A stretch of DNA of 64,000 nt from Oscillibacter sp. CAG:241 (GTDB lineage: Bacteria; Bacillota; Clostridia; Oscillospirales; Oscillospiraceae). The stretch covers positions 12,224-76,223 of the forward strand of contig FR884114.1 in the NCBI GenBank assembly GCA_000435975.1. Direction: 5' to 3'. Below the pieces are notes generated by a model. The model had not been told where the DNA came from. It saw only the letters and a list, made by a program, of their open reading frames with translations, and did no database searches. Made by a program: the position numbers and the translations under genes. This document shows positions 3,757 through 64,000 of the stretch, one piece after another; the stretch's first letter is position 1; each line of letters opens with the position of its first letter.

Positions 3757-4450
3757 GGTCTGCTCCCTGCCGTCCTTGACATACACGATCTGCCGGGCAA
3801 CCTTCTTGTCGCCCTCAGTTTCGATGATGACATTCCTGACATCCATGCCATACTCGATATGCACACCGTGAGACTCCAGATATTTCACCAGCGGCAGGAT
3901 CATGCTTTCATACTGATTATACTTGGTGAAGCGCAGGGCGCTGAAATCGGGCAGGCCGTCGATGTGATGGACATAGCGGCACAGATATCGTTTCATCTCC
4001 AGAGCACTGGACCAACGCTGGAAAGCGAACATGGTCTGCCAATACAGCCAGAAGTTTGTATTCCAGAAGGAATCGGGCAGAACATCGGATATCTTCTTGT
4101 CCTCCAGATCCTTTTCCGGGGTCATAAACAGCTTGGACAGGGCCATGGCGGAGTCCTTGTCCAGCTTGAACTGCTTATCCGTGTGGGCATCCTCACCGCG
4201 GTTCACGCTGGCGCGGCACAGAGAATAGTTGGGATCGTGCTTGTTGAGCCAATAATACTCATCCAGAACAGAGATGCCCGGCGTCTCGATGGACGGAACA
4301 TCACGGAAGGTGTCCCACATGACCTCAAAATGGTTGTCCATCTCACGGCCGCCCCGCATAAAGAAGCCCTTGGTGATGTCCTTGCGGCCGTCGCAGCTGC
4401 CGCCTGCCAGGTCCAGCTTTTCTAATACATGGATGTGCTCGCCCTTCAGC

Positions 4451-5301: not shown

Positions 5302-5814
5302 TTGAACTATGAAATAGCCTATTACAGTTTATCAGGCAATACAGAAAAGCTGGCATACGGCATTGCAAAGCGTCTTCCGGAAAATCAAGCTTTTTTGACG
5401 AACCTGCAAGAGGAAGAAGTTACCCTTGCGGCCGATGTGTATTTAGTAGGATTCGGCATAAACAACGGTACAGTCCCGCTAAAAGTCATGGACGCATTGG
5501 ACCGGCTGGCCGGAAAGAAGATATTCCTGTTTGTGACCTGCGGCATAGAGCCAAGTGAGGAATACAAGCGGCTTATCGAGCGCAAGATCGAACCTTTTCT
5601 GCCGGACGAATGCGACTATTGCGGCATTTTGCTGTGTCGAGGTCAGATAGCGGAGGAGGTGCTGAGCAAAATCCAAAGACAGTTCGCACAGCAACCGGAC
5701 GATCCTGCCATCAAAAAAATGATCTCCGAGGCAAAATTGTCCGAGGGGCATCCCGATGAAACGGATGCGGAAAACGCAGTGAGGTTTATCCGGGAAAAGC
5801 TTGATTCTTTCTAA
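5302..5814 (+). CDS. flavodoxin-like protein
   Basis: AYYSLSGNTEKLAYGIAKRL flavodoxin signature. TTG start 8 nt after AGGGAG; the in-frame ATG at 5309 is an alternative start. Confidence 0.65.
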   Translation: MNYEIAYYSLSGNTEKLAYGIAKRLPENQAFLTNLQEEEVTLAADVYLVGFGINNGTVPLKVMDALDRLAGKKIFLFVTCGIEPSEEYKRLIERKIEPFLPDECDYCGILLCRGQIAEEVLSKIQRQFAQQPDDPAIKKMISEAKLSEGHPDETDAENAVRFIREKLDSF

Positions 5815-5863
5815 CCGGCAAGCAGCATTTCAAAGATTCATTACATAAAAAGGAGTTTTTACC

Positions 5864-6118
5864 ATGAGAAAAGTTAAGATCATCACCGATTCCTGCGCAG
5901 ACCTGAGCGCAGAGCAACTCGAAAAATACGACATCGACTACGCCAGAATGTCCACGATCGAGGATGGCAAAGAGTCTCCGGCGCTTCTCACATGGACACC
6001 CGCAGAAGCACACAGACTTTACGAGACGATCCGTGGCGGAAAGCGTATCACGACAGCGCAGGTTTCCGTTGAAGAATTCAAAAGCTGTTTGAAAAATATC
6101 TGGGGCTTTATCAGTTAG
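5864..6118 (+). pseudogene. DegV/FakB-family fatty-acid-binding protein, N-terminal 84-aa fragment
   Basis: The KIITDSCADL DegV N-terminus ends at TAG 6116-6118 after about 80 residues, whereas full-length DegV is about 280 aa. Confidence 0.6.
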
Positions 6119-17107: not shown

Positions 17108-18868
17108 ATGTTTGAGCTATTAAAGAAAATGAAACGCAAGGAGTGGCTGACTGCCGGGCTTTGCGCCATTCTGGTATTGGGTCAGATCTATTTTGATCTG
17201 CGCCTGCCGGACTATATGAGCGACCTGACAGTACTTATCAAGACCCCTGGCAGCGCAATGAGTGACATCTGGCAAACAGGGCTTGAAATGCTCGGCTGCA
17301 CGCTCGCAAGCGCTCTGCTTGCGGTAATTTGCGGATACTTGGCAGCGCAGACTGCCGCAGGCTTCAGCTATACAATCCGTGAAAAGGTGTTTAATCAGGT
17401 GGCGGATTTCGGTCAGTATGAAATGCAGCAGTTTTCTGTTCCGAGCCTGATCAACCGCACGACGAATGACATCACGCAGATCCAGATGCTTGTGGCAATG
17501 GGCCTGCAAATTATGATCAAATCTCCGATCATGGCGATTTGGGCGGTCATAAAGATCATCAACAAAAGCTGGACGCTGTCTGTTATCACCGCCGGCTTTG
17601 TCGTGGCGCTGCTTGCCATGATGGCAATCGTCATTGCGGTGATCGTGCCGCGTGTCCGCCGTGTGCAGAAATTGACGGATAACATCAACCGTGTATCCCG
17701 TGAAAATCTGACGGGCATCAATGTGGTGCACGCTTATAATGCCGAGAAATATCAAGCGGAAAAATTTGAGCAGGCCAACGACGAACTGATGAGAACGCAG
17801 CTGTTCAATCAGCACGGATTTGCGATGCTTATGCCGGCTGTCTCGTTCGCTATGAATACTTTGGCATTGACCGTCTATTGGGTAGGCGCATCTATCGTGG
17901 AAAAGGTCGCACTTACAGATGTCGCAGCGAGGATCGCAACATTCGGTGACATTATGGTATTCGGCACCTATGCAACCTATGTCATCATGTCCATTATGAT
18001 GATGGTCATGATTGTAATGTTCTTCCCTTCGGCCCAGGTTTCTGCCGGGCGTATCAATGAGGTGCTGAATGCAAAAATCATCTTACGGGAAGGAAAATCG
18101 GACAACGCTCCCGAAGTGGGCACAGTCGAGTTCAAGGATGTTTCCTTCCACTATCCCACCTCGGATAAGGATGTATTGGAAAACATCAGCTTTAAGGTGA
18201 ATAAAGGTGAAACCATTGCATTTATCGGTGCGACCGGCAGCGGTAAAACAACGCTCATCAGCCTGGCAGCTCGCTTTTACGACACGACCTCCGGCACGGT
18301 CCTGATCGACGGAAAGGATATAAAAGAATACACCTTCGACGCCCTTTACGACCGTATCGGATATGTAACGCAGAAAGCGGTTCTGTTTGCCGGTGACATC
18401 CGGGATAATGTGCTGTTCGGTGAAAGCGCCGCAGTTCCTACCGACGAAAACGCACAGAAAGCCTTGGAACTTGCCCAGGCAAGTGAATTTGTCGAAAAAC
18501 TGCCCGGCAAATTAGATGCACCGATTTCACAGGGCGGATCCAATGTTTCCGGCGGACAGAAGCAGCGTTTGGCAATCGCCCGTGCGTTGGCGAGAAATCC
18601 CGAGATTTTGATTTTCGATGACTCCTTCTCCGCATTGGACTACAAAACCGATGCAGCGCTGCGAAAAGGTCTTGCCGAAAAGCTCGGCGGCGTTACCTGC
18701 ATGATCGTTGCCCAGAGAATCGGTACGATCCGCAACGCCGATAAGATCGTCGTTCTGGATGAAGGCAAGGCCGTTGGGATCGGTACGCATGAGGAACTGA
18801 TAAAGAATTGTGCTGTCTATCGAGAAATTGCCATGTCGCAGTTGTCCGCCGAAGAACTGGGCGCATAA
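17108..18868 (+). CDS. ABC exporter half-transporter (permease + ATPase)
   Basis: Six-TM N-terminus, Walker A GATGSGKTT and canonical VSGGQKQRLAIARAL signature. Confidence 0.9.
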   Translation: MFELLKKMKRKEWLTAGLCAILVLGQIYFDLRLPDYMSDLTVLIKTPGSAMSDIWQTGLEMLGCTLASALLAVICGYLAAQTAAGFSYTIREKVFNQVADFGQYEMQQFSVPSLINRTTNDITQIQMLVAMGLQIMIKSPIMAIWAVIKIINKSWTLSVITAGFVVALLAMMAIVIAVIVPRVRRVQKLTDNINRVSRENLTGINVVHAYNAEKYQAEKFEQANDELMRTQLFNQHGFAMLMPAVSFAMNTLALTVYWVGASIVEKVALTDVAARIATFGDIMVFGTYATYVIMSIMMMVMIVMFFPSAQVSAGRINEVLNAKIILREGKSDNAPEVGTVEFKDVSFHYPTSDKDVLENISFKVNKGETIAFIGATGSGKTTLISLAARFYDTTSGTVLIDGKDIKEYTFDALYDRIGYVTQKAVLFAGDIRDNVLFGESAAVPTDENAQKALELAQASEFVEKLPGKLDAPISQGGSNVSGGQKQRLAIARALARNPEILIFDDSFSALDYKTDAALRKGLAEKLGGVTCMIVAQRIGTIRNADKIVVLDEGKAVGIGTHEELIKNCAVYREIAMSQLSAEELGA

Positions 18869-53070: not shown

Positions 53071-53177
53071 GCTGCAAGAGTAGAAGCGGCGCGTTAAGTG
53101 CCGGTCGGATGGGAGGTTGCCGCCGGACGAAGGGGACCCTGTCTCCGCGGTGCCGTCTTCGCATCCGCTTTGGCAGC
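53071..53177 (+). ncRNA. THF (tetrahydrofolate) riboswitch
   Basis: Conserved blocks in order: AGAGUAG, GCGCGUUAAGUG, UGGGA, CGAAG, GCGGUG, CAUCCGCU. P1 is formed by GCUGC/GCAGC. A downstream GC hairpin (53175-53195) and a CUCCUCC anti-SD are followed by the AGGAGG RBS of folT. Confidence 0.7.
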
Positions 53178-55266: not shown

Positions 55267-55346
55267 GAGAGGGACAATATAAGATTGGTAGCTGTAAGGA
55301 AGTGCCTCGCGCACGGGCTGCAACTATCACTCGGCTGTTGCTTGAG

Positions 55347-61023: not shown

Positions 61024-62601
61024 CTATGCCAGCTCGATGATCTCTTCCACCTGGGCCACAGCTGCGGGAGCCACGTGCTTGATGCGCCGCTTATAGCTCA
61101 CGCCCAGCAGCTGGATGGTTACCAGGGGCGTCATAGCCACCATGGCCACCACGCCGAAGGCGTCCGTGACCACGTTGCCGCCCACGGCGTCGCAGGCGCC
61201 CATGGCAAAGGGCAGCAGGAACGTGGCCGTCATGGGACCGGAGGCCACGCCGCCGGAGTCGAAGGCGATGGAGGTGAATATTTTCGGCACCACGAAGGAC
61301 AGAGCCAGGCTCAGGGCATAACCCGGCAGCAGGAACCACATGATGGAGATACCCGTCAGCACCCGGATCATGGCCAGGCCCAGCGACACCGCCACGCCCA
61401 GCGACAGGGCCAGGTTCATGGCGCCGGCGGGGATGGAGCCGGCGGTGATCTCCTCCACCTGCCGGTTGAGGATGTGAACGGCGGGCTCCGCCGCCACGAT
61501 GAAATAGCCGATGACCATAGCGATGGGAATCAGCACCCAGTTGCAGTCCAGGGACGCGATGCTGCTGCCCAGGAAATTGCCCACGGCCATAAAGCCCACA
61601 TTGACGCCGGTCAGGAACAGCACCAGGCCCAGATAAGTATACAGGAAGCCCACCGCCATGCTCATGATCTGCCGCCGGTTCAGGCGGCGGGTCAGCAGCT
61701 GGAAGATCAGGAAGAAGCCCGCAATAGGCGCCAGGGACAGGAGAATTTCCTTGAAATATTCCGGCAGCGCATGGGTATAGGACCGGAACATCTCCACTGT
61801 GTCCTGGGCGTCGGGCACCGTCACCGGCGTATAGCTGCTGCCGTCGGGCTTATACAGAAGGCCCAGCAGCAGCACCGTCAGAATGGGGCCGATGGAGCAC
61901 AGCGCCACCAGGCCGAAGCTGTCGCCTCCGGCATGCTTATCGTTTCGGACGGCACTGACGCCCACGCCCAGAGCCATGATAAACGGCACGGTCATGGGGC
62001 CGGTGGTAACGCCGCCGGAGTCAAAGGCGATGGCCCAGAAATCCGGGGACACGAACATGGCCAGGGTGAACACCACTGCATAAAACCCGATGAGCAGGTA
62101 CGACAGCGGGATACCCAGCAGGATACGCAGCAGGGCGATGACCAGGAAAACGCCCACGCCCAGGGCAACGGACCAGATGATGACATTGTTCTCAATAGCG
62201 GGCACCTGGCCGGCCAGGACCTGCAGATCCGGCTCCGCCACGGTGATGATGACGCCGATGAGAAAGCTGATGCCCACGATGACCCACACCTTCTTGGAGC
62301 GGGTGATCTCCTTACCGACGGCTTCGCCCAGGGGGATCATGGACATCTCCGACCCCAGAGAAAACAGGCCCATGCCCACGATCAGCAGCAGACTGCCGAT
62401 CAGAAACGCCATCATCGCGTTGTTGGATACCGGGGTCACGGTGAAGCACAGCAGCAGCACGATGGCCGTGATGGGCAGCACCGAGGTCAGCGACTCCCGC
62501 ATGGGCTTGCGGAAAATCGCCAGAACCTGCCCCTTCTCCCGGTGCTTCCGGCGCAGGCGGGCCTGCTGGGTCAACAGATCAGGTTTCTTGCGTGACAACA
62601 A
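61024..62601 (-). CDS. DUF1538-family membrane protein (paralog of 26888-28411)
   Basis: Same duplicated AFDSGGV..GPMT architecture. TTG start with GAAGGAGG RBS. Confidence 0.75.
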   Translation of the reverse strand: MLSRKKPDLLTQQARLRRKHREKGQVLAIFRKPMRESLTSVLPITAIVLLLCFTVTPVSNNAMMAFLIGSLLLIVGMGLFSLGSEMSMIPLGEAVGKEITRSKKVWVIVGISFLIGVIITVAEPDLQVLAGQVPAIENNVIIWSVALGVGVFLVIALLRILLGIPLSYLLIGFYAVVFTLAMFVSPDFWAIAFDSGGVTTGPMTVPFIMALGVGVSAVRNDKHAGGDSFGLVALCSIGPILTVLLLGLLYKPDGSSYTPVTVPDAQDTVEMFRSYTHALPEYFKEILLSLAPIAGFFLIFQLLTRRLNRRQIMSMAVGFLYTYLGLVLFLTGVNVGFMAVGNFLGSSIASLDCNWVLIPIAMVIGYFIVAAEPAVHILNRQVEEITAGSIPAGAMNLALSLGVAVSLGLAMIRVLTGISIMWFLLPGYALSLALSFVVPKIFTSIAFDSGGVASGPMTATFLLPFAMGACDAVGGNVVTDAFGVVAMVAMTPLVTIQLLGVSYKRRIKHVAPAAVAQVEEIIELA

Positions 62602-62873
62602 ACAATTCCTCCTTCAAAATTCCGGCAATCAAAACGATAGCGTACCTGTCCGGCCTGGCGGGCAGATACGCAAACTCTACCATTAACAAATATAATACCA
62701 TAGCTTCCCATTTTCAGCAAGAAAGAATCTGTAAAAAAAGTGTGAACATCTGACAGGGAAAACTCCTTGTCAGCGGTAGAAAATCCAGAAAAACACTCCT
62801 CTTTTGCATGTTTACTCTCCTGCCGCCACGAAAAAAATTTTGCGTCGTGATGAAAAAATATGAAAAATAGCGG

Positions 62874-62902
62874 TTGACAAATGCCGCGGATGGTGCTAAC
62901 AT
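62874..62902 (+). promoter_or_regulatory. sigma70-type promoter TTGACA-17-TAACAT upstream of Met/Cys-rich leader ORF
   Basis: Consensus -35 box and near-consensus -10 box. Confidence 0.5.
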
Positions 62903-62952
62903 GCACCCATCGATAAGAAACGCCGCCTGTGCGGCGGGAAAGGGAACACGCC

Positions 62953-63063
62953 ATGACGAAGCAGCTCTGCGGCAACAGCATGATGATGACCATGATGCAC
63001 ATGTGCGGCATGTGCATGCTTTGCTGTGGAAAAAATGGTCATTCCCTTTCAGCGCTTGCCTGA
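62953..63063 (+). CDS. 36-codon Met/Cys-rich leader ORF (MTKQLCGNSMMMTMMHMCGMCMLCCGKNGHSLSALA); putative regulatory leader peptide
   Basis: AAGGGA RBS 7 nt upstream of the ATG. 9 Met and 5 Cys in 36 residues. Stop lies 15 nt before a perfect terminator, and metQ follows. Confidence 0.4.
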   Translation: MTKQLCGNSMMMTMMHMCGMCMLCCGKNGHSLSALA

Positions 63064-63078
63064 ATGAATCGTTTGCGG

Positions 63079-63112
63079 CAGCGGAAGGTCAATGACCTTC
63101 CGCTGTTTTTTT
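63079..63112 (+). terminator. intrinsic terminator / attenuator between leader ORF and metQ
   Basis: CAGCGGAAGGTC-aat-GACCTTCCGCTG perfect 12-bp stem followed by T7. Confidence 0.7.
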
Positions 63113-63255
63113 GCTGCATGAAAGGAGCTGAAAAACCATGTGCCTGATGCCGGGCCTCATTACCCTGCTGGACGATCGAATGTGCCCCCGGGCCATCGGA
63201 TGTTCCATACAAGAGAATCAATCAACCAACTTTGACATAAAAAGGAGATAACCAT

Positions 63256-64000
63256 CATGAAAAAGAATTCTGTTCGGCTCACCGCGCTGATCCTGGCGCT
63301 GGTCCTGTCCCTGTCCCTGGTCCTGACGGGCTGCGGCTCCAAGAGCACCTCCCTGAAGATCGCCGTTCCCAACGACACCACCAACGAGGCCCGCGCCCTG
63401 CTGCTGCTGCAGGAAAACGGCATCATCAAGCTGCGCGACGGCGCCGGCATCACCGCCACCAAGAACGACATCGTGGAGAATCCCTACAGCGTGGAGATCG
63501 TAGAGGCCGAGGCCGCCCGTCTGCCCGATATGCTGAAGGACGCCGACTATGCCGTCATCAACTCCAACTACGCCATCAACGCCGGGCTGAACCCCGTGAA
63601 GGACTCCCTGGCCATCGAGGGCTCCTCCTCCGCCTATGCCAACATCCTGGCTGTGAAGGAGGGTAACGAGAATTCCCCCAAGATCCTGGCCCTGAAGGCC
63701 GCGCTGGAGAGCCAGCAGGTGGCCAGCTTCATCGAGAGTAAGTACAGCGGCTCCGTGGTCAGCACCGTGGACCACCCCGGCACCGGCTATGACGATTCCG
63801 TGGACTATGAGGCTCTGAAGGGCCAGACCATCACCGTGGCCGCCTCCCCCACGCCCCACGCCGAGATCCTGGAGGTTGTCAAGGAGATCCTGGCCGCTAA
63901 GGGCATTACCCTGGACGTTCAGGTTTATAACGACTATGTGGTGCCCAACACCGTGGTGGACGACGGCACCGTGGACGCCAACTACTTCCAGCATCTGCCC
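63256..64000 (+). CDS. metQ: MetQ/NlpA-family methionine-binding lipoprotein (5' part; continues past window end)
   Basis: Lipobox LTGC after the signal peptide, then an NlpA-family domain. The sequence PTPHAEILEVVK...DANYFQH near the window end looks like the start of a second NlpA domain. Confidence 0.8.

Follow-up and report, generated by a model that had tools for sequence, protein, structure and literature searches.

We have analysed a 64-kb stretch of DNA from Oscillibacter sp. CAG:241 (hereafter the window) and find that its last gene, metQ, lies behind a leader in which a short Met/Cys-rich open reading frame (ORF1), headed by a Shine–Dalgarno (SD) sequence, is followed by an intrinsic terminator. 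The leader represents a conserved, previously unannotated family which is absent from Rfam, Pfam and NCBIfam. We consider it probable that the leader is a ribosome-mediated transcription attenuator that responds to methionine and controls the metQNI importer, because the SD-led ORF is conserved, its Met codons are frame-specific, the terminator covaries, the linked genes are methionine genes and neither a riboswitch nor a T-box is found. The response to methionine itself is predicted from the comparative evidence, and charged tRNA-Cys is possibly sensed in addition to charged tRNA-Met. A sequence-only reading of this DNA had proposed leader attenuation of the trp/his type working through Met codons; the conservation, frame specificity and gene linkage just named now support that proposal.

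Leader anatomy in the window

The leader has the following parts.

62874–62902 (+): promoter-like site, TTGACA (62874–62879), 17 nt, TAACAT (62897–62902), with extended −10 TG; 10/12 match
62921–62936 (+): hairpin in the 5' untranslated region (5' UTR), CGCCGC-CTGT-GCGGCG, just before the ORF1 SD (by folding)
62936–62945 (+): SD region of ORF1 (GGGAAAGGGA), with SD-like AAGGGA at 62940–62945, 7 nt before the ATG
62953–63063 (+): leader ORF1, 36 codons plus stop, MTKQLCGNSMMMTMMHMCGMCMLCCGKNGHSLSALA; ATG at 62953, TGA at 63061–63063
62980–63018 (+): putative regulatory codon run, with 8 Met and 2 Cys codons in codons 10–22 (by codon count)
62995–63017 (+): hairpin formed by Met/Cys codons (AUGCACAUGUGCGGCAUGUGCAU), with a U-rich stretch after it (by folding)
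63045–63060 (+): candidate antiterminator, 5' strand (CCUUU...CGC.UGCC), at the 3' end of ORF1 and abutting the stop codon (by duplex prediction and covariation)
63077–63088 (+): candidate antiterminator, 3' strand, overlapping 11 of the 13 nt of the terminator 5' arm (by duplex prediction and covariation)
63078–63112 (+): intrinsic terminator, perfect 13-bp stem 63078–63106, AAU loop, T7 63106–63112; −23.2 kcal/mol
63257–64000 (+): metQ, NlpA-family methionine-binding lipoprotein, running off the window; PF03180, E=2.7e-62; lipobox signal peptide

Much of this anatomy agrees with the sequence-only reading, which had described the consensus promoter and a Met/Cys-rich ORF of 36 codons (9 Met and 5 Cys, the Met clustered at codons 10–22) with a good ribosome-binding site; we count eight of the Met codons in that cluster. 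The hairpin with T7 that it reported is present, but its limits shift by one base, the stem having 13 bp (14 pairs in a second count) and beginning 14–15 nt after the ORF1 stop codon; likewise, the following gene does encode a MetQ lipoprotein, but starts at 63257 and not at 63258. Two additions have to be made to the earlier picture: the Met/Cys run forms a conserved hairpin of its own, and a second conserved upstream ORF (uORF) lies inside 62874–63256, the interval that had been assigned to the leader as a whole.

The promoter-like site is the sole strong one on the + strand in 62400–64000, and is kept as TTGACA-17-TAnnAT in the 29 relatives of the nucleotide alignment on which we based our reading of promoter, 5' UTR and gaps. 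At the position of the 62921–62936 hairpin one relative (L013; labels of this form denote relatives' loci) carries CCCAC-CCTG-TGGGG, and conservation of this hairpin across the family is absent. The Met density of ORF1 is not a chance feature, since at least five in-frame ATG within 12 stop-free codons occur at three places only in the six frames of the window and the arrangement recurs in more than 100 independent sequences. The only other strongly Met-rich reading-frame stretch of the window, at 17975–18030 (+; TYVIMSIMMMVMIVMFFPS), resembles a hydrophobic segment.

At the Rfam gathering score there is no match in the leader region, and no S-adenosylmethionine (SAM) family matches anywhere in the window; a permissive scan (E≤10) of 62550–63400 returned noise only, with no SAM or T-box family. 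The earlier statement that no S-box-like or T-box-like element was recognised in the leader is thereby upheld. The T-box model (RF00230) finds nothing in the window leader, though it does detect T-boxes upstream of metQ in two relatives (L040 and L053; see below).

Conservation and coding character of ORF1

Relatives were gathered by searching a MetQ fragment against one genome per species, which gave 80 metQ loci, mostly from Oscillospiraceae (Vescimonas, Hominicoprocola and many metagenome-assembled genomes), with some labelled Lachnospiraceae, Christensenellaceae or other Clostridia. At 51/80 of these loci a first screen detected a Met/Cys-rich ORF ahead of metQ, and an automated screen (at least five in-frame ATG in 12 codons, and a terminator within 130 nt) found the leader in 54/80, plus one further locus (L043) with fewer Met codons; the sequence-only reading had pointed to the region upstream of met genes in other genomes as the place to look for such ORFs, and this is where they occur. 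Among the closest 37 loci the element is present in all except L022, which has no upstream sequence. In total, 114 unique leaders were collected, and the carriers are genomes and metagenomes labelled Oscillospiraceae, Lachnospiraceae, Christensenellaceae and Anaerovoracaceae. Across the family ORF1 has 30–43 codons, with 5–11 Met and 1–6 Cys codons (MKKLSNAMMMMYMCMCRMCMLRRAHFGHELSETCLTA and MKRRSTAMMMCQMCMGMMSMCMFLRAQNDRLLSKNC are typical peptides), and an SD (GGAG/AGGA/AAGG) stands 4–14 nt before the start in 50/50 relatives with upstream sequence, the leader of L067 running off its contig.

A profile built from 33 leaders (with a 44-aa GTG-extended form of the window peptide as its first row), searched against 5.8 billion protein sequences, matched 167 small proteins of 32–77 aa at E≤0.01. 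Among the 120 matches listed, the source names are 'hypothetical protein' or an uninformative tag only, and the 33 leaders are without a match among Pfam and NCBIfam models; the exact 36-aa ORF1 peptide has no entry in the gene-position index. The protein P0051 is 92% identical to the window peptide and is encoded on a syntenic metagenome contig, in which genes for a response regulator, a P-II protein and a DUF1538 protein, divergent, are followed by the leader, metQ and a further gene.

Within 51 leaders, ATG occurs 435 times in frame, 25 times in the +1 frame and never in the +2 frame. The Met columns are invariant or at least 90% conserved, as is one Cys position (≥90%), and the triplets between the conserved Mets vary freely (S, E, Y, R, G, H, P, T, Q, K); further, the gaps in the coding part of the 29-sequence alignment, judged by eye, are of 3, 6 or 9 columns. 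Considering that the ATGs are frame-specific, the intervening triplets variable and the gaps multiples of three, RNA structure alone would not yield this pattern, and ORF1 appears to be read as codons, under selection at the level of translation. The C-terminal tail of ORF1 (GGUCA nnnn CUUUC) is conserved as nucleotides and not as amino acids.

The terminator and the genes beyond it

A terminator-like hairpin with a T tract follows 51/51 leaders, a few of them (e.g. L002/L003 and L021) being poorly resolved by a simple finder and recovered by a search based on RNAfold. For the 114 unique leaders the median terminator free energy (ΔG) is −20.2 kcal/mol, and the distance from stop codon to stem has a median of 23 nt (range −2 to 50 nt). 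Pairing of the terminator in alignment A3 (28 sequences, used for covariation) reaches 94.6%, and 11 cells are compensatory; distant lineages have wholly different terminator stems, e.g. GGAGAGCUC, CGCGGAGCUU, ACGUAAAGCUU and GGCCCGGAAAC. We also considered the opposite, pyrBI-like logic, in which a ribosome at the stop codon blocks the terminator directly, and rejected it on account of the stop-to-stem distance (median 23, up to 50 nt).

The leader promoter is the sole promoter-like site before metQ in the window and in L024 and L084, none being present between terminator and metQ in these three, and the gap from terminator to metQ is about 20–60 nt in several lineages. Since no promoter-like site follows the terminator and the gap is short, metQ expression is expected to need read-through of the terminator.

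The linked genes are those of methionine supply. In particular, metQ (PF03180), metN (ABC_tran plus NIL) and metI (BPD_transp_1) come next after each of three leaders whose neighbourhoods are unrelated, and beyond the order leader-metQ-metN-metI these neighbourhoods have nothing in common. Moreover, metagenome contigs were scanned for the core pattern ATGATGNNNATGNNNATGTGCNNNATGTGCATG without regard to genes, which gave at least 120 matching loci; among the matches listed, 111 are informative (they extend 500 nt or more downstream), and in 97 of these metQ follows within 1.6 kb. Eleven of the remaining 14 have leader and terminator before metN (in the order metN-metI-metQ), in one the leader precedes a lipoprotein without an assigned family, one was discarded as a low-complexity chance match, and in one (L176) leader, terminator and second uORF precede another gene. 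We take the product of that gene, judged from its start and not from a profile, to be O-acetylhomoserine sulfhydrylase-like; if this identity is correct, the regulon reaches beyond transport. From the metQ, metN and L176 neighbours we therefore suggest that the regulon comprises methionine uptake and at least one gene of the methionine biosynthesis type.

Two relatives carry T-box leaders (RF00230) at the leader position upstream of metQ, which we read as functional replacement: L040 at 2344–2575 (110 bits) and L053 at 5705–5931 (106 bits). The L040 T-box, the one for which the specifier was read, has an AUG triplet at the expected specifier codon position.

A candidate antiterminator

RNAduplex and inspection indicate that the last codons of ORF1 pair with the base and the purine-rich part of the terminator 5' arm, in a candidate antiterminator that encloses the stop codon in a loop or an apical hairpin. 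In the window 63045–63060 (CCUUU/CGC/UGCC) pairs with 63077–63088 (GGCA/GCG/GAAGG) at a ΔG of −15.1 kcal/mol, and in the main group CUUUCyG...CUGUUUG pairs with CAAACAG-CGGAAGG at −15 to −18 kcal/mol. On A3 the antiterminator is 80.2% paired, against 40–52% when the partner strand is slid by 1–3 columns, with a covariation score of 0.256 against 0.06–0.13 in the slid controls; double-sided changes fill 19 cells, a number reached in 0/500 shuffles, and five of the seven pairs in the helix enclosing the stop codon show compensatory changes. Diverged members keep the match: the L043 tail AAGCUCCG matches its terminator arm CGGAGCUU, and the L107 tail GUUUCC...CGUCUGA matches UCAGG..GGAAAC. The sequence-only reading had suggested looking for an antiterminator that excludes the terminator and overlaps the Met run; the candidate and the terminator would exclude each other, but the Met run is not involved, the pairing being located at the 3' end of ORF1 around the stop codon.

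Several observations weigh against attenuation through this pairing. The terminator, at −23.2 kcal/mol, is much more stable than the antiterminator at −15.1 kcal/mol (a difference of about 8 kcal/mol), and it was kept in every minimum free energy (MFE) fold, even with the ribosome footprint masked at five stall positions. A thermodynamic switch was accordingly rejected; because the terminator is the more stable structure and is always kept in the folds, a switch, if present, must be kinetic, as in trp. Unguided, RNAalifold on 29 sequences returns two structures only, the terminator and the Met/Cys-codon hairpin, and does not recover the antiterminator. Further, the energies of the duplex between tail and arm are no better than those of dinucleotide shuffles for most leaders (p=0.34 for the window copy), and a test of pairing with own versus foreign terminators gave p=0.08; both tests have low power because the purine-rich arm and the CUUUCC tail are alike in all lineages. 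The antiterminator scored above was derived from one A3 member, which inflates the contrast with the slid controls. The ORF1 tail UUCCCUUUC (63041–63049) is complementary also to the ORF1 SD GAAAGGGAA (62938–62946), and the MFE folds favour this pairing, which might serve as a '1:2' element or in translational feedback. Apart from RNA structure, methionine starvation would also limit the charging of initiator tRNA and could lower translation of the leader, and ORF2, the second uORF, between terminator and metQ, may carry part of the regulation. On balance, geometry and covariation fit the classical model, and we regard the case for the candidate antiterminator as inconclusive but favourable.

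Proposed mechanism and alternatives

Under the attenuation model, transcription would start at the promoter at 62874–62902 and a ribosome would translate the 36-codon leader. With methionine plentiful, the ribosome would pass the Met run and reach the stop codon at 63061–63063, covering 63045–63060, so that the terminator 5' arm could pair with the 3' arm and RNA polymerase would terminate at T7 (63106–63112). With Met-tRNA scarce, the ribosome would stall within codons 10–22 (62980–63018); by standard ribosome dimensions, an A site on the last Met codon would place the end of the footprint at about 63033 and leave 63045–63060 free. The freed 3' end of ORF1 could then capture the emerging terminator 5' arm (63077–63088) and delay formation of the terminator, and the polymerase would read into ORF2 and metQ and, as the gene order in relatives suggests, on into metN and metI. 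The Met/Cys hairpin with its U-rich stretch could pause the polymerase until the ribosome arrives. The Cys codons may add sensitivity to cysteine, or may only supply the UGC/GCA complementarity of the Met/Cys hairpin.

An alternative is that the RNA itself is the sensor, an unrecognised riboswitch or protein-bound RNA controlling the terminator, and that the ORF is incidental to AUG/UGC-rich structural repeats. The conserved hairpin in the Met/Cys run and the conservation of the ORF1 tail (GGUCA...CUUUC) by nucleotide and not by amino acid would suit such a sensor, and, Met having a single codon, conservation of peptide and of RNA are inseparable at the Met positions. We nevertheless hold it to be very unlikely, given the near-confinement of ATG to one frame (435/25/0), the SD and start codon, whose spacing is kept wherever upstream sequence is available, the variable triplets between ATGs and 3n coding gaps, the 5' UTR, too short and too little conserved to accommodate an aptamer, and the lack of any Rfam match. 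Still less probable is a stand-alone Met/Cys-rich micro-protein (Cu(I)- or other metal-binding, or redox-buffering) that merely adjoins metQ: ORF1 does have its own promoter and a strong terminator, gene callers report it as a protein in many assemblies, and its MxM and CxxC-like spacing resembles metal-binding motifs, but the conserved neighbours are methionine transport and biosynthesis genes only and never, in the neighbourhoods inspected, copper or metal homeostasis genes. Moreover, no promoter for metQ was found after the terminator, the gap to metQ goes down to about 20–35 nt, and residues beyond Met and one Cys are unconserved, with no Pfam or NCBIfam match. For the idea that ORF1 is the precursor of a peptide made on the ribosome and modified after translation (a RiPP) speaks solely that it is a short Cys-rich peptide, and we give the idea next to no credence, since the neighbourhood holds no conserved maturation enzyme, protease or exporter, the flanks differ between lineages except for metQNI, and the core is unconserved apart from the Met positions. 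The metal-binding and modified-peptide alternatives had both been named in the sequence-only reading, and neighbourhoods that share metQNI only lend them no support.

It is also conceivable, if unlikely, that the leader has a dual function, working as an attenuator while the terminated leader RNA of about 200 nt and/or the peptide acts in trans. The terminated transcript would be abundant at methionine sufficiency and would expose conserved single-stranded CUUUCC and AUG-rich segments, and rnTrpL/peTrpL of Sinorhizobium give a precedent (PMC6614838, PMC7298713). Attenuation by the translating ribosome stays the explanation that we prefer for ORF1 and its terminator.

A second small ORF between terminator and metQ

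The region between the terminator and metQ contains the second uORF, with the following features.

63121–63127 (+): SD of ORF2 (AAAGGAG)
63138–63251 (+): ORF2, 37 codons, MCLMPGLITLLDDRMCPRAIGCSIQENQSTNFDIKRR (begins MCLMPGLITLLDDRMCPRAIGC); its stop overlaps the metQ SD (by sequence and conservation)
63177–63184 (+): CGAAUGUG motif (also written CGAATGTG), Arg14-Met15-Cys16 of ORF2 (by motif conservation)
63169–63207 (+): hairpin with the motif at its base, the AUGUG being in its 5' strand (by folding)

The motif (C)GAAUGUG is found within 330 nt after the terminator in 61/113 leaders (about 2 expected by chance), and for 58 of the 61 an SD-led start codon lies 5–17 codons upstream in the reading frame of the motif AUG. 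ORF2 of the relatives reads ...KRMCPRDTE..., ...DDRMCPPDT... or ...LVRANFRFGRM-stop, the codon after the motif AUG being UGY, UGA or, once, UGG; at the place of the 63169–63207 hairpin relatives have UGUGUCC-nnn-GGACACA or GUGUUUU-GAG-AAAACGC. The motif also occurs upstream of metQ without ORF1, in 8 of 23 leaderless loci. In L051 (1700–1870) and L057 (5830–6000), CGAATGTG is present twice in one uORF, 30 nt apart and both times in frame (MKFTFKERMCNYVWFTKRM-stop), and this uORF comes directly after a consensus promoter, with no terminator before metQ. The ORF2 SD (63121–63127) is a further sequence to which the ORF1 tail UUCCCUUUC is complementary.

In the subfamily reading ..RANFRFGRM, the downstream gene has an SD that can pair with the 15 nt immediately 5' of CGA-AUG, and the complementary stretches covary, with pairing energies of −14.8 (L055), −12.5 (L043) and −11.3 kcal/mol (L176). 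This suggests translational attenuation in the subfamily, in which the anti-SD would be held by a ribosome that waits at the Met codon. The ..LVRANFRFGRM(C/stop) segments with the anti-SD lie at 4350–4470 in L055, at about 5915–6001 in L043, in L176, at 425–520 in L080 and in L184/L189. An anti-SD role of ORF2 in the window was unsupported (ΔG −4.6, z=0.24), and a Rho-utilization site in the ORF2 spacer was dropped for want of a C>G bias (C 16.7%, G 15.3%).

We raise only tentatively, as a possibility that falls well short of the attenuator itself, that the leader is a two-stage sulfur-amino-acid sensor, in which ORF1 attenuates transcription and ORF2 (x(5-17)-Arg-Met-Cys/stop, CGAAUGUG plus hairpin) separately senses methionine and acts on translation. 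The anti-SD pairing of the ..RANFRFGRM subfamily is suggestive of an ermC-like translational attenuator specific for one hungry Met codon; an arrest peptide sensing methionine or SAM is an alternative. The R-M-C motif recurs in ORF1, in ORF2 and in Streptomyces metL; were the two-stage proposal true, R-M-C would be indicative of a codon or nascent-peptide signal that serves methionine control across phyla.

Other features of the window

Upstream of the leader, the opposite strand codes for a P-II-like protein and a membrane protein of the DUF1538 type, so that 62602–62952 is a divergent intergenic region. The MetQ proteins of the window (63257–64000), L002 (6001–6894) and L084 (6211–7062) match PF03180 in two stretches, of which the N-terminal one (residues ~32–177) aligns to profile positions 99–234; this suggests that the MetQ domain order is circularly permuted relative to the Pfam model. 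Elsewhere in the window Rfam detects a tetrahydrofolate (THF) riboswitch (53074–53172, 69 bits), an ssnA RNA motif (55282–55329, 69 bits) and a tRNA (2548–2630).

Comparison with known systems

Methionine genes of Firmicutes are a textbook case of RNA-based sensing, by S-box riboswitches and T-boxes, and leader-peptide attenuation is regarded as mainly proteobacterial and actinobacterial. To our knowledge, methionine is missing from the list of amino acids of classical attenuators and appears only in a few weakly supported predictions. We see in the leader described here a widespread new family within a known class of regulators, with an amino-acid specificity that is unusual for the phylum and has few, weaker precedents in other phyla; a full-text literature search returned no description of the Clostridial element, and reports beyond the literature searched are possible. 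The family occurs in Oscillospiraceae and related Clostridia that are abundant in human and animal guts, where it would mark methionine-responsive operons of uncultured bacteria and improve their annotation. It would also offer a compact, portable Met-responsive genetic switch and allow a direct test of a ribosome-based sensor for an amino acid that is needed in initiation as well, with the conserved ORF2 as a further lead.

Like the classical attenuators of Proteobacteria (trpL, hisL, leuL, thrL, ilvL, pheL), the leader has a short SD-led ORF, a dense run of codons for the end product and an intrinsic terminator soon after the stop codon; its candidate antiterminator, in which the ORF's 3' end would pair less strongly with the terminator 5' arm, and its in-ORF hairpin as a possible pause site would also correspond to theirs. 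It differs from them in that the codons are Met with interspersed Cys, that the operon encodes an importer (metQNI/metNIQ) more often than a biosynthetic pathway, that the hosts are Firmicutes of the class Clostridia, that there is no sequence relationship and that a second uORF follows the terminator.

Closer in specificity are the leaders of Campylobacter and Streptomyces, in which uORFs with Met codons precede methionine genes and attenuation was proposed. In C. jejuni, MetL (20 aa, 3 Met codons) was predicted upstream of metBA (PMC3847290), and ribosome profiling (Ribo-seq) found MetL to be translated and CJsORF19 (MMYQMR) to lie upstream of the metQ-like Cj0772c (bioRxiv 10.1101/2022.11.09.515450); in S. 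lividans, metL (MSTTSDRTPATEATTTPGARCMCRRMCAF) lies upstream of metNIQ, is leaderless and has no clear terminator (PMC8079986). With the Clostridial family the S. lividans peptide has a CMCRRMC-like Met/Cys motif in common, but homology was not demonstrable (hhalign, 7 residues, 25% probability), and the relation to the Streptomyces and Campylobacter leaders appears to be one of functional analogy only. Moreover, those leaders have 2–3 internal Met codons, whereas here 5–11 Met codons are combined with a strong terminator and wide comparative support.

Ribosome-mediated attenuation outside Proteobacteria is further represented by the His leader upstream of hisS/hisZ paralogues in bacilli (PMC2965389), by the Leu-rich peptide that attenuates the ilv-leu operon of S. 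aureus (PMC5794164) and by actinobacterial Cys leader peptides, which have no terminators and for which Rho-dependent termination was proposed (PMC1262725). The Cys leaders sense a sulfur amino acid, as the present family would; otherwise, amino acids and hosts differ. Finally, SAM-I (S-box) and Met T-box leaders occupy the same position upstream of metNIQ or metQ and likewise use a premature intrinsic terminator, in contrast to which the leader described here matches no aptamer or tRNA-binding RNA, and its sensor would be the translating ribosome, reading the availability of Met-tRNA.

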